Assembly: GCA_046757525.1 (NCBI GenBank) | Contig: JBHHYI010000001.1 | Span: 31,073-95,072 of the forward strand | Reading direction: 5' to 3' | Length of the DNA: 64,000 nt | Origin: a bacterium | Lineage (GTDB): Bacteria > Zhuqueibacterota > Zhuqueibacteria > Oceanimicrobiales > Oceanimicrobiaceae | Shown: in pieces, positions 26,643 to 57,831 of the stretch | Layout of the letters: each line of letters starts with the position of its first letter | How positions within the stretch are numbered: the stretch's first letter is position 1 | Made by a program: the position numbers and the translations under genes | Notes under the pieces: generated by a model | Told to the model about the DNA's origin: nothing | Databases searched by the model: none | Seen by the model: only the letters and a program-made list of their open reading frames with translations

Positions 26643-26708
26643 CCGCCAACCTCAGATCGTTGGGCTTCGAGGCTGTTGGTTTGCTCCGCGTGTTTCCTAA
26701 AAGCCCCC

Positions 26709-26855: not shown

Positions 26856-27141
26856 CGACAGCGAGGCGTTTCCTGAAAGCACTGTGCGAGTCATCCCGAG
26901 TAGGTCGCTGCTGTTCAAGTGACCGTATCGAGGGGTGACGGACGTCGATACGAAATTCCCCTTTTTGAAAGGGGGACGGTTTTTGAAGCGTCCAGCGAAA
27001 AAACCAGGGGGATTTTAGGAGGCGTCCTGAAAACCCAAGCTAAGGTGCTGTCGGCCAGACATCCCTCTGATTTTCGCTCTGAACGAGCGAAAATCTGTCT
27101 CCCTTCAAAGGGAGAATGGCCTCGCAAACGAGACGTTTGCG
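26856..27141 (+). repeat. structured intergenic repeat element, copy A (5' module, hairpin-rich middle, conserved 3' hairpin)
   Basis: Positions 26883-26953 are about 90% identical to 53802-53872. The 3' hairpin cgcaaacg-aga-cgtttgcg is shared with copy B. Confidence 0.6.
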
Positions 27142-27158
27142 CGACGGGCAACGGCTTC

Positions 27159-28235
27159 ATGAGTTTAAGAATCATACATATTGCCCCTTTTAACACCTCG
27201 GGTGTCCCCATGGCTCTGGTCAAAGCTGAAAGGAAGCTGGGTCACTACAGCCGCTTGGTCACCCTGGGGCGGGATTTGAGGCATTACGAAGAAGATATTT
27301 GTCTGGATTTACCATTCATGAATTCCTGGGCTACCCGGTTAGCGAAGAGAATCGTTGTCCATCCGGACAGGCTTTCCGTGCACAACAACTACAAAATGCC
27401 TGAAACGATTCCTCCGGTTTGGCAGCCCAACGGGCCGGCTGAAAAAATAGGGATCGCCCTGCGCGAGTGGCTGTGGAAACGCCGAATCGAGCAACTGTTT
27501 GAGTCGTGTGATTTTTGGAACTTCGACATTTACCAGTTGGACGGGGGGCTGGAGTTCTTCAGAAATGGCCAGACCATCAAGAAACTCAAGGCGTTGCACA
27601 AAAAAGTTATTTGCTGCTACACCGGCAGCGATTTGCGTACAAGAGGCGTTTTGCCCAACGTTGATGCCCTAACGGATCTCAATGTTACTCTGGAATTCGA
27701 CCATTTAAAACTGCATGAAAAGATTCACCACGTTTTTTTCCCCTTTGACGTCAGCAGATACGAATTAAGGGCAGAGCCCGAGGGGGCCACGATCAGGATT
27801 GGGCATGCGCCCACAAATCGCGCGGCCAAAGGCAGCGAGGTCATCATCTCTGCTATTCAGGAGCTGCAATCGGAATTCTCAGTCGACTTGGAATTGATCG
27901 AGAATTTGCCACATGAGGAAGCGCTCAAAAGGAAGGCAAGATGTCACATATTTGTGGACCAAATAGGCATGCTGGGCTACGGCATCAACTCACTCGAGGC
28001 ACTGGCTATGGGCATTCCCACGTGTTCCTGTCTGGCCCCCGGTTTTGAAAAGGAATACTCCGATCATCCTTTCATCGTCATCGATGCGTCCAACATCAAA
28101 GCACGGTTGCGAGAATTGGTGCGCAGCAGAGAATTGCGACAGGCAAAGGGTAGCCAGGGCCGGCATTGGGTGCAAACCCACCACGACAGTCTCAAGGTTG
28201 TACAGAAGATTCATGCATTGGCTGGCTTGACTTAG
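27159..28235 (+). CDS. glycosyltransferase (GT-B fold, GT4-like C-terminal domain)
   Basis: Start placed at the ATG at 27159 (MSLRIIHIAPF). C-terminal half resembles the GT4 retaining-GT nucleotide-binding domain. The upstream part of the tracked ORF is the repeat region. Confidence 0.45.
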   Translation: MSLRIIHIAPFNTSGVPMALVKAERKLGHYSRLVTLGRDLRHYEEDICLDLPFMNSWATRLAKRIVVHPDRLSVHNNYKMPETIPPVWQPNGPAEKIGIALREWLWKRRIEQLFESCDFWNFDIYQLDGGLEFFRNGQTIKKLKALHKKVICCYTGSDLRTRGVLPNVDALTDLNVTLEFDHLKLHEKIHHVFFPFDVSRYELRAEPEGATIRIGHAPTNRAAKGSEVIISAIQELQSEFSVDLELIENLPHEEALKRKARCHIFVDQIGMLGYGINSLEALAMGIPTCSCLAPGFEKEYSDHPFIVIDASNIKARLRELVRSRELRQAKGSQGRHWVQTHHDSLKVVQKIHALAGLT

Positions 28236-28403: not shown

Positions 28404-29588
28404 ATGGAGAAGGCAGTGCGCGCAATGTTTAAGATTAAGCATTGGTTAAAACGGTCTACCTTGAAGCTTCTTCCTGGAAGGCCGGGAAAAGAGGTAATCG
28501 CGCCAGGTGATTTGCCACGATCAGAAATTCGCAAGATTGTGATCCTAATCCGGTCAGATGCTTTGGTTGATCTATTGTTGACCACGCCTGTTTTTAAAGC
28601 AGTCCGACAGGGATTCCCCTCGGCGCATATTGCTGTTTTGACGGGGAATTACACCGGCCAGGTCTTAGTTAACAACCCGAACATCGACGAAGTCATCTAT
28701 TTGCGCAAAGGGCTGGCATTTTGGTCGCCTGCTAATGTCATTGCTTTTGTTAAGCAATTACATGCCCACTTTGATTTAGCCATCGTGTTAAACCCTTCGG
28801 CCCAGATCGATTGGCTGGCTCATTTTAGTGGCGCCAGGTACATTTTGGGTCCCGAGCAAGCCGTTGAAACTGACGACGAGGCCATTGGCTTCTACAATCT
28901 GCGCGCCCCCCGCGCCGACGCAAAGCAGCACGTAACTGAGAGAGCTTTGGCGGTTGTGCGCCATCTCGGCCTGGATTCCAGCGACAAAGGGGCTGAGCTA
29001 AGCATAACCACGGAAGAAAAGATCCGGGCGATCGAGTTTTTGAAAGAAAATTTCATCCAACTGGGGGAGCTGGTGGTTGCGGTACACCTTGGTACAGGCA
29101 AGTTTAACCAGCCCTGGGATGTGAAGAACTTTATTCAAGTGGCCAAGAGTTTCAGCACCTTGCACAACGCTAAGATCGTGGTGTCGTGGGGACCTGAAGA
29201 CCAGCAGACAGGCCGGGCCTTCCTGGAGGGCATGCCTTTTACGCCAGTCCAGGCCAACGGGTTGTCGTTGCGCGAGCTTGCCGCCGTGTACCTCTTTTGC
29301 AGCTTGCTCGTGTGCAACTACACCGGGATCATGTATTTGGCCGCCAGCTTGGGTACGCCGCTGGTGGCCGTTGGCGGCCCGCCTGAGCCTGACGATCGCG
29401 AGCCGCTGGGCGAAGAATTTGTCGTGCTAAAAGGGGTCCACGGGGATGTGTCAACCATCGGCCCGGAGCAGGTGATGCAGCGGGCAGCCGGACTTCTTAG
29501 AGCTTACCCAAAGAATATCAAAGACCAACAGTTCGACATTTCAGAGCAGGTGTTAGAGCAATATTTGAACGTCCTAAAAACCTTTTGA
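28404..29588 (+). CDS. glycosyltransferase family 9 (heptosyltransferase-like)
   Basis: RKIVILIRSDALVDLLLTTPVFKAV N-terminus, typical of GT9. Confidence 0.6.
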   Translation: MEKAVRAMFKIKHWLKRSTLKLLPGRPGKEVIAPGDLPRSEIRKIVILIRSDALVDLLLTTPVFKAVRQGFPSAHIAVLTGNYTGQVLVNNPNIDEVIYLRKGLAFWSPANVIAFVKQLHAHFDLAIVLNPSAQIDWLAHFSGARYILGPEQAVETDDEAIGFYNLRAPRADAKQHVTERALAVVRHLGLDSSDKGAELSITTEEKIRAIEFLKENFIQLGELVVAVHLGTGKFNQPWDVKNFIQVAKSFSTLHNAKIVVSWGPEDQQTGRAFLEGMPFTPVQANGLSLRELAAVYLFCSLLVCNYTGIMYLAASLGTPLVAVGGPPEPDDREPLGEEFVVLKGVHGDVSTIGPEQVMQRAAGLLRAYPKNIKDQQFDISEQVLEQYLNVLKTF

Positions 29589-30452: not shown

Positions 30453-31346
30453 TTGAAGGCATTCTCGTTTACCAATGAAAAAGGACTGTTGCAAATTGGC
30501 GTTGAATTACAAGGGCAAGCTTTCAATTTCTCCCAGGCCTGGGAAATCTACAAAGAGATCAAGAGCCGTGGCAAAGGCCCCAGTCTGAACCTCCTGCAAA
30601 TAATGGTGGAGACGGATTTCTTTTATCTGGACACCTTTCAGGAAGTTTTTCAAACGATCCGAGAATCCAGGCCCATCGAGAATCTCAAACTAACGTCCCA
30701 TTTTCGTTTCAGCTCCCCCATCGGTAGGCCCCAAAAAATCATCTGCATCGGCAGAAATTATAGCGCTCATGCTGAAGAATTGGGCAATGTTGTGCCGGAT
30801 GAGCCCATTTTTTTCTCAAAGTCTCCTTCGGCCATCACCGGGCATGAAGGTGCTATCAGAATCCCAGAAGGCGTTGGGCGCGTGGATTACGAGGGCGAAT
30901 TAGCTGTTGTGATCGGTAAACGGGCGCGTGGCATTTCCCGGGACAGGGCCTTCGACTTTATTGCAGGATATACCATACTGAATGACGTCACGGCACGGGA
31001 ATTACAAAAAGCTGACTTCAAAGAAGCGAAGCCATGGTTTCGTTCAAAGAGCTTTGACACCTTCTGTCCCATTGGCCCCTTTTTGGTGCCAAAGGATGCC
31101 ATTGCCAATCTGGCTGATTTGGAATTGGAAGTGCGCGTCAATAATGAACGAAAACAGTTTGCCAGGCTGGCACAAATGTTGTTTGATGTGCCGGGCCTGG
31201 TAGCCTATTTGTCAAGGTACCTGACGCTGGAGCCGGGCGATGTGGTGGCAACCGGTACGCCCGAAGGCGTTGGTCCGCTGCGACCGGGCGATGTGGTAGA
31301 GTGTGAAATAACCCAGCTTGGCACCTTGCGGAATCCAGTGCAGTGA
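30453..31346 (+). CDS. fumarylacetoacetate hydrolase (FAH) family protein
   Basis: C-terminal FAH-fold motifs (YEGELAVVIGK, GDVVATGTPEGVGP). Confidence 0.8.
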   Translation: MKAFSFTNEKGLLQIGVELQGQAFNFSQAWEIYKEIKSRGKGPSLNLLQIMVETDFFYLDTFQEVFQTIRESRPIENLKLTSHFRFSSPIGRPQKIICIGRNYSAHAEELGNVVPDEPIFFSKSPSAITGHEGAIRIPEGVGRVDYEGELAVVIGKRARGISRDRAFDFIAGYTILNDVTARELQKADFKEAKPWFRSKSFDTFCPIGPFLVPKDAIANLADLELEVRVNNERKQFARLAQMLFDVPGLVAYLSRYLTLEPGDVVATGTPEGVGPLRPGDVVECEITQLGTLRNPVQ

Positions 31347-48349: not shown

Positions 48350-48503
48350 TGATTGACCGAGACTCCCAAAATGTCATTTCGACGCAGTCCAGCAACTGCC
48401 GGACGGAGGAGAAATCTGGTTACATTGGTGCTTAGCCAGATTTCTCATCAGGCATTCGCCTGATTCGAAATGACAGTCGTTAGATGAGTTTTCGGTCAAT
48501 CAC
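48349..48503. repeat. about 155-bp nested inverted-repeat (MITE/REP-like) element between rsmB and the PASTA gene
   Basis: Outer inverted repeat gtgattgaccga / tcggtcaatcac. Inner inverted repeat tgtcatttcga / tcgaaatgaca. Internal stems gagaaatctgg / ccagatttctc and tcaggc / gcctga. Confidence 0.6.
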
Positions 48504-50024: not shown

Positions 50025-50064
50025 TGTCATTTCGAGTCAGGCGGCTGCCTGACTCGAAATGACA
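50025..50064. repeat. perfect 18-bp-stem palindrome sharing the TGTCATTTCGA termini of the 48349-48503 element
   Basis: tgtcatttcgagtcaggc-ggct-gcctgactcgaaatgaca. No U-run follows it. Confidence 0.7.
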
Positions 50065-50321
50065 GTTTGGGGGCTTAAGTTGATGCCGATGGGCGTATGC
50101 CGGATTAATCGGGAATCTTGTGCCTAATTCTCGAATGCATTCCTGCTTACACCATGCAGCAATGACATTCATTGGGCCAATAGATGAAATTCACAATAGT
50201 TTAGTTATTGGATGGCGGATAAACGGGGATGTAATCAAGATTATCTGGGGGTATTACCTTGACGCAGTTACCTACCGTGACGTATTGCCAATCGTATTCT
50301 CAGTCCAGGATAGTTAAGGTG

Positions 50322-52745: not shown

Positions 52746-53735
52746 TTAATCACGATCGTTTTGGTTATGCATGAGTTTATGCCGCTTCTCCAAGAGCGCG
52801 TCAATTGCGGAGATGGTTTCCCTGGGAAGTTTCCAGTCACCCGCCCCAATGGTTTGCTCAATTTGCACTTGACGCCTCGCTCCCACAATCGCGGCGGTGA
52901 CTTCAGGGCGCCGCAGCACCCAGGCGATTGCAAGCTGGGCAACGGACTTCCCATGTTCCTCGGCCAGCGACCTCAGAGCGTCCACGAACGCCAGATTCGA
53001 GCTCAGCTCAGGCTCCCGGAATCGGCTGTCAACCGTTCGTCTGTGGTCCGCCTCCGGCAACGCTTCTACCCATTCTCGGGTAAACTTGTCCGTCAAAATA
53101 CCTTTCTGCAAGGGACTGTAAGGGATGACCCCGATGTTTTTTGCTGAACAATAATCCAGCAGATTATTTTCAACGTTGCGTTCAAGCATGCTGTACGGCG
53201 GCTGCACCGAAGCCACCAGGTGAATCGCTGCAATGCGCTCGAGTTGTTTTACACTAAAATTGCACACGGCGGCATACCGGATTTTCCCTTCTTCGACCAA
53301 CTCTGCTAATGCGCCCCAGGCTTCTTCGATATCATTTTTCGGGTCTGGCCAGTGAATTTGATAGAGATCGATCGCCTCGATTTGCAGTCGTCTTAAGCTG
53401 GCCTCTACTTCAGCCCGAACACTCGCTCGTTTTAATCTTCCGAAAACGTTGCCGTCTTTATCCCAGGCCAGGCCGCATTTGGTGGCAAGGATGGGCTTAG
53501 CGCTCCTGCCTTTAATGGCTTGGCCCACGACTTCCTCAGCGTGACCCAACCCGTAGACCGGGGCGGTGTCAATCCAATTGACGCCTAAATCAAGCGCACG
53601 TTGGATAGTAGTGATCGATTCTTGATCATCCTGTGGGCCCCAGCCAAAAGGCCAGCCGCCACCGCCGATAGCCCAGGTGCCGAGTCCAATAGGAGTCAAT
53701 TCTAAATCTGTGGAGCCTAATTTTTTTGTTTGCAT
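52746..53735 (-). CDS. aldo/keto reductase family oxidoreductase
   Basis: LGTWAIGG and WIDTAPVYG motifs. Start placed at MQTKKLG (53735). The rest of the tracked ORF is 5' leader. Confidence 0.8.
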
Positions 53736-53779
53736 GGTTTTTCGAAGCTTTGTGCGCGTTTTTACACTAAAGAAAACGA

Positions 53780-53995
53780 CTGAAGTGGTTCTTAGAAACA
53801 ATGTGCAAGTCATCCCGAGTAGGTCACCGCTGTTCAGGTGACCGTATCGAGGGGTGACGGGCTTCGATACGTCCCGACCAAAAAGCGGTAGGGACCAAAC
53901 GGTGACCTTCTTTGAGAAGGTTACCGTTTGACAACCCCGCCCTCGCAATCGAGACGATTGCGTTACGTGCAACAGAGCGTTTCCTGAGAGTGTAC
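53780..53995 (+). repeat. structured intergenic repeat element, copy B
   Basis: Positions 53802-53872 are about 90% identical to 26883-26953. Contains a 15-bp hairpin (53905-53937) and the shared 3' hairpin cgcaatcg-aga-cgattgcg (53944-53962). Confidence 0.6.
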
Positions 53996-54315
53996 TAATA
54001 TGTTAAATAAATGAAAGCATGTCAAGAGAAAAGTTTGTCCAATGATTCGCGCAAAAGCTTCTCAGTGGGTTTATTTGCACCAACAGGGCCTGGCTTTGGT
54101 CAAACGAGTGAATCCAAAGCCTCACAAAGGTTCAGAACCTTCGCGAGGCGGGCGCAGCCCAAACTTGTCGCAGCGACGGTCGAATGCTAAGGCTTATGCC
54201 GGGTCGGTGGCTGTGGTTCCTATTTTTTCAGGGGTACCAAATCAAGGGCGGGTTTTGATGGGTTGGGACGAAACGTGTGCGCATGCCCGGGCTGCGCAGT
54301 AACCCCAAAAATTTC

Positions 54316-54344
54316 TTGACAAATAGCAAGATATTAATTATATT
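54316..54344 (+). promoter_or_regulatory. sigma-70-like promoter for the cold-shock gene
   Basis: TTGACA (54316-54321), 17-nt spacer, TATATT (54339-54344), about 95-nt leader. Confidence 0.5.
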
Positions 54345-54441
54345 GCAATCGTTTAACGGTGAATAGGCAGTTTGGTCTACATAATATTACAAAGGGGTTT
54401 TATGTAGATCAAGCGGCACAAAAGGAGGAGGAGTGCACAGC

Positions 54442-54642
54442 ATGTTTAGAGGTAAAGTCAAATGGTTCAACGACAACAAAGGTTATGGTTTCATTGAACA
54501 CGAAAACGGGGAGGATGTATTCGTCCACTTTTCTGTTATTGAGATGGATGGTTACAAAACCTTGCAAGAAGGCATAGAAGTGGAATATGAATGCATAAAC
54601 GGCGAAAAGGGCCTGCACGCTACGCGCGTAACCAAGATTTAG
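54442..54642 (+). CDS. cold-shock protein (CspA family)
   Basis: [18 protein letters not shown] with RNP1/RNP2 motifs. 66 aa. Confidence 0.9.
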
Positions 54643-54703
54643 TTCCCGACTTCTGTGAACCAATTTCCATGCTACCTACCTATCTACATAAACATTCTTG
54701 ACG

Positions 54704-54731
54704 ACCCCGATTCCTGATCGGGGTTTTGTAT
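54704..54731 (+). terminator. rho-independent terminator after csp
   Basis: accccgat-tcctg-atcggggt stem followed by TTTGTAT. Confidence 0.7.
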
Positions 54732-54756
54732 ATACGCTTGAATTAACGTCGGAGCG

Positions 54757-55224
54757 TTGATTGTGAGATTCTCTAAGAAGGACATCGACAAAATTGGCAA
54801 GGTGTTAGGCGTTCAAGCCAAGCTTTGGGGAAACAATTATCGCTTTATGCTCGAAAACAGAGAGGCCGGCAGAAAGCTTTCCTTGGAAATCTATCCTAAC
54901 ATTCCAATCGGCAAACAGACCGGAAACCTGGTCAGCGTTTACACCCACAACTCCCATTTGCAGCTTCACTTTTGCACCGGATACGTCGTCAGTGAGATGT
55001 TGGGTGAGGTTACTTTTGTAGGCGAGTTTCAAGGACGCCTCTCGGGTCTGATTATCGAAAAAGAGGCGGGCTGTTCTCTCTACGCCAATGTTGATTCAAA
55101 TCTTCTTTCCGGCGATCTCACGAAACTTGGCCCAGAAGTCATGCTTTCCGGCATTGCTTTATCTCTTACCGAAGGCATTCTGCCGGGCGGAGAGGAGGCA
55201 CATTCCGAAGAAAGAGAATCTTAA
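54757..55224 (+). CDS. hypothetical protein
   Basis: 155-aa open frame between csp and the xerD-like gene. No recognisable motif. Confidence 0.35.
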   Translation: MIVRFSKKDIDKIGKVLGVQAKLWGNNYRFMLENREAGRKLSLEIYPNIPIGKQTGNLVSVYTHNSHLQLHFCTGYVVSEMLGEVTFVGEFQGRLSGLIIEKEAGCSLYANVDSNLLSGDLTKLGPEVMLSGIALSLTEGILPGGEEAHSEERES

Positions 55225-55293
55225 CACCCGGCATTGATACTGGTGACGAGATCGCATGGCGTCGATGGCAATCTCTTTTTGAAGAATAATGGG

Positions 55294-56220
55294 ATGTTGA
55301 ATTACTTAGACGAATTCCTGAACTTTCTCCGGGTTGAAAAGAATGCCGCTGCCAACACCGTCCAGTCCTACCAGAATGATCTGAATCGCTATTTGAGTTT
55401 TCTGGCGGATAGGGGCTTTGCCAATTTGGAAGATGTCAAAGCCGCAGATATTCTCTCCTTGATCAATAGCTTGCACCAGTTGGGTTTTGCTTCCGCCAGC
55501 AACGCCAGAAATTTATCCGCCATCCGAATGTTCCACCGTTTTTTGCTTGGAGAAGGCCACGTAAAAGTCGATCCTACCCTGAACATTAGCTTCCCCAAGC
55601 TGTCGAAAAAGCTGCCCGCAGTCCTGACTCAACCGGAAATCGAATCCATTTTGAGCCAACCGGTTCTTTCCACGAAAAAGGGTCTGCGCGACAAGGCGAT
55701 GTTGGAGTTCTTGTACGCTACCGGAACACGGGTTTCGGAGCTGATCGCCACTCGTTGTCAGGATTTGTTTTTTGCCGAGGGATTCATTCGAGTGGTGGGA
55801 AAAGGGTCGAAGGAACGCATCGTCCCCATTGGCGAGCAAGCTATATTCTACACGACCTCCTATTTAACGCAAGTGCGGTGTCACGTAGCCCAGAGAGGTC
55901 TCAGCAAGGATGTGGTGTTCTTGAATTTCCGCGGCAAGCCGCTTTCGAGGATGGGTGTCTGGAAGGTCCTGCGTGCTTATGTCGTCAAGGCGGGCATTAC
56001 GAAAAAAGTTTCGCCGCATACGTTCAGGCACTCGTTTGCTACCCATCTCATAGAAGGGGGAGCTGACCTGCGTGCTGTGCAGGAAATGCTGGGCCATGCG
56101 GATATTTCCACAACGCAAATCTACACGCACCTGGATCGTGAGTACCTGAAAGAGGTGCATCGGCTGTTTCATCCCCTGGAAAAGTATGGCAACAAAGCGA
56201 AGAGGGTGTTACAAACATGA
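55294..56220 (+). CDS. tyrosine site-specific recombinase (XerD-like)
   Basis: R...HxxR...Y catalytic set (HTFRHSFATHL, LGHADISTTQIYTHL). Confidence 0.8.
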   Translation: MLNYLDEFLNFLRVEKNAAANTVQSYQNDLNRYLSFLADRGFANLEDVKAADILSLINSLHQLGFASASNARNLSAIRMFHRFLLGEGHVKVDPTLNISFPKLSKKLPAVLTQPEIESILSQPVLSTKKGLRDKAMLEFLYATGTRVSELIATRCQDLFFAEGFIRVVGKGSKERIVPIGEQAIFYTTSYLTQVRCHVAQRGLSKDVVFLNFRGKPLSRMGVWKVLRAYVVKAGITKKVSPHTFRHSFATHLIEGGADLRAVQEMLGHADISTTQIYTHLDREYLKEVHRLFHPLEKYGNKAKRVLQT

Positions 56221-56241: not shown

Positions 56242-57831
56242 ATGTCGAAAGTCTCTGAGCGCAAAAAAATATTTACTACCGATTCCGGCATTAAAGTCAA
56301 AGCTGTCTACGACGAGGCAGATGTCGCAGACTCCAAGGGTCTGCTGGGCTTTCCTGGAGCGTATCCCTTCACTCGCGGGATTTATTCCAATATGTATCGC
56401 GGCCGATTTTGGAGCATGCGGCAATATGGCGGTTTTGGTACGGCAAAGGAAACCAACCAAAGATTCAAGTATTTGCTGGATAACGGACAAACGGGCCTGT
56501 CGGTCGCCTTTGATCTGCCTACCCAAATGGGTTTCGATTCGGACTCCCCGCTGGCAGAAGGCGAAGTGGGGAAGGCAGGCGTGGCGATCGATAGCCTCAG
56601 GGACATGGAGATTCTGTTCCAGGATATACCGCTGGAGAAAATAACCACGTCCATGACCATCAACGCTACTGCTGCCATTCTTCTGGCCCTTTATGTGGCC
56701 ATCGCCAGGAAGCAGGGTGCAGATTTGAAACGAATCAGCGGCACGATTCAAAATGACATTCTCAAAGAATACATCGCTCGCTCGACTTACATTTATCCGC
56801 CGGAGCCCTCGATGCGAATCGTGACCGACATTTTTGAGTATTGCAAAGACCACCTGCCGCGCTGGAACACGATCTCCATAAGCGGCTACCACATCCGCGA
56901 GGCTGGTGCCAATGCCATCCAGGAGTTGGCGTTTACCTTTGCCAATGCCATCGCCTACATTGAGGCGGCCCTGAAGCGCGGTTTGAATGTGGATGAATTT
57001 GGCGGTCGGTTGTCCTATTTCTTTGCCTGTCATAACAATTTTTTTGAAGAAATTGCCAAATTCCGGGCGGCGCGTCGTATTTATGCAACCATTATGAAGG
57101 AAAGATTCAACGCTGCCAGGCCGAAGACCCTGATGCTGCGGTTCCATACGCAAACAGGTGGGTCCACCTTGACCGCGCAACAACCGGATAACAACATCAT
57201 TCGGGTGGCGTTGCAGGCCCTCGCCGCTGTTTTGGGCGGCACGCAGTCGTTGCACACCAACTCCAAAGACGAAGCGCTGGCGCTCCCGACCGAGGAGGCC
57301 GTACGCATCGCCTTGCGAACCCAGCAAATCATCGCTCATGAATCGGGCGTGGCCGACACCGTCGATCCGCTGGGGGGGAGCTATTTTCTGGAATCCCTGA
57401 CCCAAGAAATCGAGTCCAAAGTGTGGGGATATCTTGACCGAATCCAGAAGTTGGGAGGGGCGGTAAAAGCCATTGAAGAGCACTATTTTCAGGAGGAGAT
57501 CAGCAGAAGCGCCTACAAATATCAGAAAGAGATCGAGGCGAATGATAGAATCATCGTGGGCGTGAATGAATTTGTTCATGAAGAGAAAGAACCTCAATCA
57601 ATTTTGCGCGTCGATCCCTCGGTCCGCAGCGAACAAATAGCTGCCCTGAAAAAATTAAGAGCCGATAGAGATACTGGCAAAGTCGAGCGTTTGCTGGCAG
57701 AATTGAGAACGGCTGCGCAAGGCTCTGAAAATCTCATGCCCAAGATTCTGGCCTGTGTCGAAGGTTACGTAACCCTGGGAGAAATCTCTGACACCTTGCG
57801 AGAAGTCTTCGGCAGCTACAGCGAAAGCTGA
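56242..57831 (+). CDS. methylmalonyl-CoA mutase-family catalytic (TIM-barrel) subunit, no B12-binding domain in this ORF
   Basis: 529 aa matching the MCM large-subunit N-terminal domain ([24 protein letters not shown]). Confidence 0.85.

Follow-up and report, generated by a model that had tools for sequence, protein, structure and literature searches.

The question raised by this stretch of DNA, a window of 64,000 nucleotides (nt) from a bacterium of the Zhuqueibacterota (positions 31,073 to 95,072 of contig JBHHYI010000001.1, assembly GCA_046757525.1), is what kind of structured element stands upstream of its minus-strand aldo/keto reductase gene and, in a related copy, upstream of a plus-strand open reading frame (ORF) elsewhere in the window. 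An earlier note on this DNA had taken the two copies, here called A (26890-27155) and B (53809-53975), for a mobile or repetitive structured element inserted in intergenic DNA, or else for an independently transcribed small RNA, and had argued against a simple leader or riboswitch. The analysis reported here established that both copies contain a 50-nt hairpin unit belonging to a dispersed family of repeats, that neighbouring units of this family are mostly inverted relative to each other, and that in a number of loci the units bracket a gene for a small GIY-YIG protein. We consider it probable that copies A and B are gene-less composite copies of a dispersed hairpin-repeat family of the Ssn-like or REP-like kind, which would make them a DNA repeat recognised by a nuclease.

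In each unit a short outer stem (CAUCCY/RGGGUG) leads through an asymmetric internal loop of invariant sequence (GAGUAG / CGUAUCGA) into an inner hairpin that varies from unit to unit, the outer stem being characterised by a U-G wobble and by tandem G-A/A-G beside the closing pair. Written as DNA, every unit reads C-R-Y-C-C-Y, GAGTAG, the variable hairpin, CGTATCGA and R-G-G-R-Y-G, in that order. A metagenome search with a pattern made of the two invariant blocks of the conserved 5′ domain returned more than 120 stretches with the unit among the matches listed, that is, at least that many. A stricter pattern applied to a genome collection identified one Anaerolineae metagenome-assembled genome (MAG), the scan of viral contigs with the unit pattern gave 0 matches, a blastn search of PLSDB with a GC-rich unit gave none, and a literature search with strings of the unit sequence retrieved chance primer matches only. 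The fetched loci contain 109 distinct units by the strict pattern and 187-206 by a relaxed pattern, which also admits unconstrained partner units; the carrier loci range from 35 to 71% GC, and in one assembly, LXNI01, units occur on at least 13 contigs among the matches listed.

The fold that was tested has, besides the outer stem and the inner hairpin, a G-C pair within the loop. In a gapless alignment of 52 units it pairs 79% of cells as compared to 66% in shuffled alignments, with 0 of 500 shuffles as high, and its covariation score is 0.31 as compared to 0.14 (again 0 of 500); both stems covary, and slid controls gave 37-52% pairing. The closing pair of the outer stem is C-G in 147 and U-A in 49 of 206 units, with about 10 mismatched, and the C-G and U-A types co-occur in one doublet (L111). 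As the closing pair covaries within the unit even where the units of this doublet differ, a unit folds on its own and does not pair solely with an inverted neighbour. A long four-way junction was accordingly rejected as the primary fold of full doublets, the left and right flanks covarying within each unit; in full doublets (L008, L033, L041) CGTATCGAGGGG...CCCCTCGATACG form a long stem. The fold is strand-asymmetric, owing to the U-G wobble, present in 135 of the 206 units, and to the tandem G-A. Resemblances to the hammerhead, K-turn, sarcin-ricin and group II domain V motifs were dropped as the conserved positions do not fit. With regard to variation around the unit, the right flank alone, GCCGTATCGAGGGG, is repeated in tandem two to four times after some units (L112, minus strand near 419, L118, L088, L025), which looks like slippage, or repeated cutting and rejoining, at the right flank. 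Short hairpins with the core of the unit and no inner hairpin, for example GTCCTGAGCTTGTCGAAGGG and CCCTGAGCGAAGTCGAAGGG, were observed in or beside elements of L009, L039, L020, L103 and L131, and suggest a larger superfamily based on CCYGAG...CGARGG.

A covariance model built from the 52 metagenomic units (R1) found exactly two significant matches in the window, namely the units of copy B (46.5 bits, E 5e-10) and copy A (44.7 bits, E 1.4e-9), the third-best match having an E-value of 0.8. Since a model built only from metagenomic units matches A and B, the window copies are true members of the family, and the stem GUCAUCCC/GGGGUGAC in the minimum-free-energy (MFE) fold of copy B is the family's outer stem. 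The placement of copy B in the same orientation as copy A, reported in the earlier note, was reproduced by a repeat finder, which paired 26863-26952 with 53782-53871 (90 nt, 84% identity, both on the plus strand). The copies have a 5′ domain of about 70 nt and a 3′ hairpin in common, and their middles, of about 170 nt in A and about 70 nt in B, are unrelated by alignment. The 22-nt 3′ module CCTCGCAAWCGAGACGWTTGCG is found in the window only at 27120-27141 and 53941-53962, with 0 occurrences expected by shuffling. A 15-bp hairpin with one G-U pair, which had been described for copy B in place of the middle of copy A, is present and sits within a 16-bp stem of the MFE fold.

Two further components of copy B bear on its composite nature. 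The heptanucleotide UCGAUAC at 53864-53870 offers an alternative pairing to the outer stem of the unit, and it matches the right flank of the inverted partner unit in full doublets elsewhere (...CCCYTCGATACG). Judged by their sequence, copies A and B look like doublets in which a good plus-strand unit is followed by what is left of the right flank of the partner (TCGATACG), by a spacer of their own and by a 3′ hairpin specific to this genome, the spacer and the 3′ hairpin carried by the copies in this genome being lineage-specific. The 3′ module of copy B (53941-53975) may itself be a lineage-specific, degenerate inverted unit, as its reverse complement reads GTAA-hairpin-AGGG; R1 gave a non-significant minus-strand match here (53936-53958, E 9). 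A resemblance between the 3′ flank of copy B and the 5′ flank of copy A, also seen in the earlier note, proved to be an exact 14-mer, GCGTTTCCTGARAG, at 26866-26879 and 53977-53990; the suggestion drawn from it, that the units are circularly related or tandemly arranged, did not hold, nothing else pointing to circular permutation. The same 14-mer recurs with two mismatches at 26690-26703, 176 nt upstream of copy A, and TTTCCTGAAAG adjoins elements in L004 and L014. Binding by a protein is one possible role of the 14-mer, and another is that of an additional module of the mosaic.

The two copies could also be inert, decaying relics, without function or partner in this genome and kept by chance or by hitch-hiking, a possibility with which the presence of just two copies in 64 kb, neither with an intact inverted partner, their unrelated spacers and the absence of a nuclease gene from the window would all agree. 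The sequence of the units themselves argues otherwise, as they are near-identical to the family consensus and their scores of 44.7-46.5 bits are on a par with those of many metagenomic members. In addition, A and B differ by compensatory changes in each of the two hairpins: the inner hairpin is GGUCACC/GGUGACC in B and GGUCGCU/AGUGACC in A, with one compensatory change (C-G to U-A) and one change of A-U to G-U, and the 3′ hairpin is CAAUC/GAUUG in B and CAAAC/GUUUG in A, a compensatory change of A-U to U-A. These differences indicate selection, or recent copying, of folded structures, and we regard the relic explanation as very unlikely.

The units are intergenic and lie beside unrelated genes, the 150 nearest ORFs representing 103 Pfam families with none present in more than three ORFs. 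Adjacent units are arranged as +- in 27 pairs, -+ in 53, ++ in 11 and -- in 7, that is, 80 inverted as compared to 18 direct (about 80% inverted), and long quasi-palindromic doublets of the form unit(+)-spacer-unit(-) are found in L008, L041, L082 and L033, of which L033 is closely related to the window type. Copy number varies between related loci, with three elements in L014 as compared to one in L033 upstream of the same gene, and two modules in L042 as compared to one in L090 and L092, L024 also being compared. When the flanks of every unit cluster were searched by BLAST against all loci for empty sites, only such copy-number differences of tandem modules were recovered. The repetitive nature of the element proposed in the earlier note is consequently supported by the metagenomic stretches, the unrelated neighbours and the variation in copy number, and its mobility is left without the support of a clean empty site. 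The comparison with relatives of the reductase locus that the note had called for was possible for two loci (L128, L129), which carry no units; these have only 50-90 nt upstream of the gene, with no R1 match, and as they are not syntenic with the window the test is a weak one.

The same arrangement data bear on an RNA role, according to which the element would be an mRNA stabiliser, a terminator-like structure, a leader of the reductase gene or a small RNA, with the nuclease association being secondary. The plus-strand folds of copies B and A are far more stable than shuffled sequences (z = -8.6 and -6.1, respectively) and beat those of the minus strand (z -5.4 and -3.7), a G-U wobble is conserved in the unit, the spacer of copy A gives a near-threshold match to the RNA motif whalefall-1, and copy A is co-oriented with the ORF just downstream; furthermore, a promoter-like site on the minus strand would put copy B in the leader of the reductase gene. 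In such a leader copy B would be antisense, which destroys its G-A and G-U features, and no plus-strand promoter-like site was found before copy A or copy B. The suggestion of an independently transcribed small RNA received no positive support. Searches of Rfam 15 gave no gathering-level match in the window and one tRNA only in 20 loci, and in E-value scans of both copies the unit matched no family. The flanking genes are functionally unrelated, and a constant orientation or position relative to a coherent set of genes, as expected of a leader or riboswitch, was not seen, and this reading was rejected. In agreement with the earlier argument against a gene-specific leader, the two window copies are inverted relative to their adjoining genes, the reductase gene being on the minus strand and the ORF after copy A on the plus strand, and the neighbours across the family are as diverse as described above. 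As units mostly form inverted pairs, and occur in both orientations around GIY-YIG genes with no consistent sense orientation, an orientation-dependent RNA role is disfavoured, and the characterised analogue of the nuclease does not bind RNA (PMC11893778). An RNA role is in our estimation unlikely.

The partner suggested by the surrounding genes is a nuclease. Clustering of ORFs across loci revealed one recurrent small protein, a single-domain GIY-YIG protein (PF01541) of 97-108 amino acids (aa), and in L008, L027, L018/L100, L005/L006 and L035 units lie close to its gene on both sides. The association was then assessed from the side of the protein, with four homologues (P0183, P0175, P0182 and P0203) picked solely for their long contigs. 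In 4 of 4 cases (loci within L122-L127) units adjoin the gene, one 22-72 nt upstream and usually on the strand of the gene, the other 5-98 nt downstream and usually on the opposite strand, the CCUGAG/CGAAGG variant being included among them. Most GIY-YIG homologues are on very short contigs, as expected if repeats break assemblies. The bracketing extends to Methylobacterium, where homologues of about 52% identity (L130, L132) are enclosed by inverted variant units CTCATCCTGAGGTG-hairpin-CCTCGAAGGAGG with the same core as the family and even the same sequence in the inner hairpin, and a Sphingomonas homologue stands among minimal versions such as CCCTGAG-CGAAG-TCGAAGGG, as judged by eye. The nearest solved relatives of the associated proteins are the UPF0213 proteins 1ZG2 and 1YWL, and E. 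coli YhbQ is 36% identical. Two genomic settings of these genes were also noted. The unit-associated GIY-YIG gene is located directly downstream of nrdR both in L122 (2001-2309, a metagenomic contig) and in L131 (686-1006, a Sphingomonas plasmid), a position that may have been used for insertion repeatedly or may be old and vertically inherited. In L126 (500-2865) a unit-flanked GIY-YIG gene has a reverse transcriptase (RVT_1) gene on one side and a bAvd gene on the other, and appears to have been inserted inside a diversity-generating retroelement.

On the reading of the unit as a nuclease-recognised DNA repeat, it would serve as a strand-specific recognition hairpin in single-stranded DNA (ssDNA) for a cognate GIY-YIG nuclease, the gene of which would lie in another part of the genome. 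While the DNA is in single-stranded form, as in replication or the uptake of DNA, the nuclease would bind the hairpin in its folded state and cut nearby, and gene-less copies such as A and B would be dispersed cis sites left by the spread of a unit-gene-unit cassette or of unit pairs. Recognition in ssDNA is proposed because of the analogy with the Ssn/NTS system and with REP/RAYT, the strand asymmetry of the fold giving indirect support for strand specificity. GIY-YIG enzymes are not known to form a covalent intermediate, a property that bears on how copies could spread.

Several results weigh against this reading. A six-frame hmmsearch found no GIY-YIG gene in the 64-kb window, and it is an assumption that the cognate nuclease is encoded elsewhere in this genome. 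The GIY-YIG association was seen in a minority of the motif-selected loci, about 6 distinct ones of about 120, and four plasmid genes encoding homologues of 35-40% identity are flanked by neither units nor SRMs. Both window copies lack a good inverted partner unit, and their spacer and 3′ module sequences have no further copies in the fetched loci. The empty-site search yielded no clean pair of filled and empty sites and no target-site duplication, and mobility is consequently not demonstrated. The G-U pairs and the quality of the RNA fold would suit an RNA role just as well. Finally, the published SRM pattern matched 0 units, 0 sites in the window and 8 scattered sites in 790 kb, and the associated proteins are only putative members of the Ssn clade (cd10448); their nearest solved relatives are those of UPF0213. 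A link to SRM-flanked Ssn genes by way of the plasmid homologues had been considered, and was dropped as those four genes are without either type of repeat.

If the nuclease reading holds, the repeats mark the sites of action of a site-specific single-strand DNA nuclease, and a role would be assigned to hairpin repeats that are abundant in uncultured bacteria. More tentatively, and with a chance that we place clearly below even, the hairpin with the CCYGAG...CGARGG core, which here carries a GUAG/CGUAU internal loop and an inserted hairpin and elsewhere takes shorter forms, could be the cognate ssDNA site of a large and previously unlinked clade of stand-alone UPF0213/YhbQ-like GIY-YIG nucleases outside the published SRM definition. 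This would extend the Ssn principle of one nuclease and one hairpin to Chloroflexi-like and many other uncultured bacteria, would give a clue to what UPF0213-type proteins do, and would explain a palindromic repeat family that is common in metagenomes and has no Rfam match.

The features of the two copies and of the adjoining genes are collected in the table.

Features of copies A and B and of the genes beside them (positions are those of the window)
Feature	Position	Strand	Description
Copy B conserved unit	53809-53858	+	R1 46.5 bits, E 5e-10; MFE fold recovers both stems; exact half-motifs
Copy B outer stem	53809-53816 with 53851-53858	+	GUCAUCCC pairs with GGGGUGAC
Copy B internal loop	53817-53822 and 53844-53850	+	GAGUAG and GUAUCGA
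Copy B inner hairpin	53822-53843	+	GGUCACC-gcuguuca-GGUGACC
Copy B UCGAUAC	53864-53870	+	Complement of the unit's GUAUCGA; read from the sequence
Copy B spacer, private to B	53872-53929	+	Small hairpin 53872-53894; 15-16-bp hairpin 53897-53929 (arms 53897-53911 / 53915-53929, one G-U); no similarity to copy A or any fetched locus
Copy B 3′ module	53941-53975	+	Hairpin CGCAAUCG-aga-CGAUUGCG (53944-53962), then UUACGUGCAAC
Near-palindromic 14-mer	53977-53990	+	GCGTTTCCTGAGAG (TTTC-CT-GAAA type); also 5′ of copy A
Copy A conserved unit	26890-26939	+	Architecture as in B; inner hairpin GGUCGCU-gcuguuca-AGUGACC; R1 44.7 bits
Copy A spacer	26953-27119	+	Several hairpins (fold), including the whalefall-1-like module 27058-27118 (minus-strand match)
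Copy A 3′ module	27120-27155	+	Hairpin CGCAAACG-aga-CGUUUGCG, then CGACGGGCAAC
Aldo/keto reductase gene	52746-53735	-	Pfam PF00248, E 3e-85; 329-aa NCBI MAG protein 100% identical
ORF downstream of copy A	27159-28235	+	Copy A 20 nt upstream

Copy B starts 74 nt upstream of the reductase ATG, on the opposite strand, and the reductase gene is context only, outside the element. The region of about 1 kb between the reductase gene and the next ORF (53736-54756) is without a recognisable gene and is unusually long. A promoter-like site of the sigma-70 type is found on the minus strand at 54025-53997 (TTGACA-17-CATATT, 10 of 12 positions, a consensus match only) and points to the reductase gene; if it is used, the reductase transcript would begin with a leader of some 255 nt in which copy B is present as its reverse complement, and an incidental effect of copy B on the reductase gene is possible. 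The ORFs 54042-54302 and 54757-55224 have no Pfam or NCBIfam match. For the annotation of the window, the 1-kb region 5′ of the reductase gene is to be taken as holding a repeat element and not a dedicated regulatory RNA. The gene for XerD (55234-56220) was rejected as a part of the element, since it encodes a housekeeping recombinase (TIGR02225 above cutoff). The ORF that follows copy A had been called a glycosyltransferase gene in the earlier note, and no Pfam or NCBIfam match was obtained for it; the gene after it, at 28404-29588, encodes a family 9 heptosyltransferase. A second palindromic repeat family, ATTTCGAGTCAGGC-nnnn-GCCTGACTCGAAAT-GACAGT, has intergenic copies at 48440-48477 and 50029-50066 that are 79% identical and flank the PASTA-protein and rpe genes, between rsmB and argH, and a weak third match at 56723, inside the methylmalonyl-CoA mutase gene, is probably due to chance.

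Among known systems the GTAG REPs share many traits with the unit; they have been recorded in over 80 species from 8 phyla, with Chloroflexi and Bradyrhizobia among the carriers (PMC3733652). As in REP, REPIN and BIME sequences (PMC3733652, PMC3116915), a GTAG stands directly 5′ of a covarying stem-loop, GAGTAG preceding the inner hairpin immediately in all units where REPs have GTAG and an extragenic covarying stem-loop of 20-40 nt; the repeats are likewise extragenic, occur as singletons, inverted dimers and clusters, have G-T pairs in their stems and bracket a partner gene. The inverted dimers and clusters typical of REPINs are present in the family, the window copies having a degenerate partner only. 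With regard to the high copy number per genome of REPs, the analysis covered the 64-kb window, in which two copies are seen. It is conceivable that the units are GTAG-type REPs or REPINs that owe their mobility or maintenance to a RAYT (an HUH/Y1 tyrosine transposase), and that GIY-YIG genes are just a favoured neighbourhood: singles, head-head and tail-tail dimers and clusters are defining traits of GTAG REPs (PMC3733652), and with one RAYT per genome this partner is easily overlooked in sampled loci. Against this, the bracketed gene is repeatedly a GIY-YIG gene, including all four of the protein-first picks, and the long conserved and mutually pairing flanks are absent from ordinary REPs. 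The 25 Pfam families listed for the 150 ORFs closest to units did not include Y1_Tnp, no RAYT or other transposase was seen, and tblastn with IS608/IS200 TnpA queries, a weak test, gave no match in 790 kb. We hold it quite unlikely that the family is of this type. The unit further differs from REPs in that the partner found here is a GIY-YIG nuclease and not an HUH/Y1 transposase, in the conservation of its core across very different GC contents where REPs are species-specific, and in a further conserved flank on the 3′ side (CGTATCGARGGG), which by pairing with the 5′ flank places the GTAG in an internal loop instead of at a free end.

The TnpA transposases of the IS200/IS605 family recognise imperfect subterminal hairpins in ssDNA in a strand-specific manner, and they provide the nearest mechanistic model for a reading of the unit by a protein. 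In contrast to these elements, no Y1 transposase was found, the units around a gene are typically inverted and not direct, and neither defined element ends nor cleavage tetranucleotides were identified for the units. A likeness to whalefall-1 (RF01762), an orphan RNA motif (Weinberg et al. 2010, PMC2864571), is confined to a two-hairpin module in the spacer of copy A (27058-27118, minus strand), which scored 35.5 bits as compared to a gathering score of 37 (E 1.5e-7). The plus-strand reading of this module starts with CATCCC..TGA before a hairpin, like the left flank of the unit; it differs in being located in the spacer, outside the conserved unit, and in having the strand opposite to the unit, and no such module was found in copy B or in the other fetched loci.

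The closest likeness in organisation is to the Ssn nucleases, single-domain GIY-YIG proteins of about 94 aa encoded in an NTS-ssnA-NTS architecture (Chenal et al., Nat Commun 2025; PMC11893778). These enzymes cleave ssDNA only, and not RNA or double-stranded DNA, beside the flanking hairpin repeat and in a strand-specific manner, and in Neisseria the system of Ssn and repeat modulates transformation and local recombination (PMC11893778). In common with the Ssn/SRM pairs, the system described here has a small single-domain GIY-YIG protein, of about 95-105 aa, whose gene is flanked on both sides by hairpin repeats of 20-50 nt, in a layout of repeat, gene and repeat that resembles an insertion sequence and that was found in the family (L008, L027, L018, L005, L035, L122-L127, L130, L132), not within the window; the same repeats are also dispersed in intergenic DNA, and conserved non-palindromic flanks orient them. 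The motifs differ, CAUCCYGAGUAG-hairpin-CGUAUCGARGGG here as compared to CGTC-ATTCCCGCG...CGCGGGAAT-CYRG for Ssn, and the SRM search reported above employed the published pattern HGTCWYN(0-2)YYVSBRHN(0-5)WNVSBRGN(0-2)RNCYNB as a regular expression, which matches the NTS consensus. Further differences are that the unit motif is known here from its sequence, and that the carriers are mostly uncultured, Chloroflexi-like and other taxa. Being distinct from the published Ssn-related motif, the unit would add an enzyme and a site specificity to a family that is being developed as ssDNA tools. The motif is new, and pairs of a hairpin repeat and a small nuclease are a known kind of system; by analogy, the repeat and its nuclease would work like an Ssn/SRM pair with REP-like traits, and we do not class the unit as an SRM.

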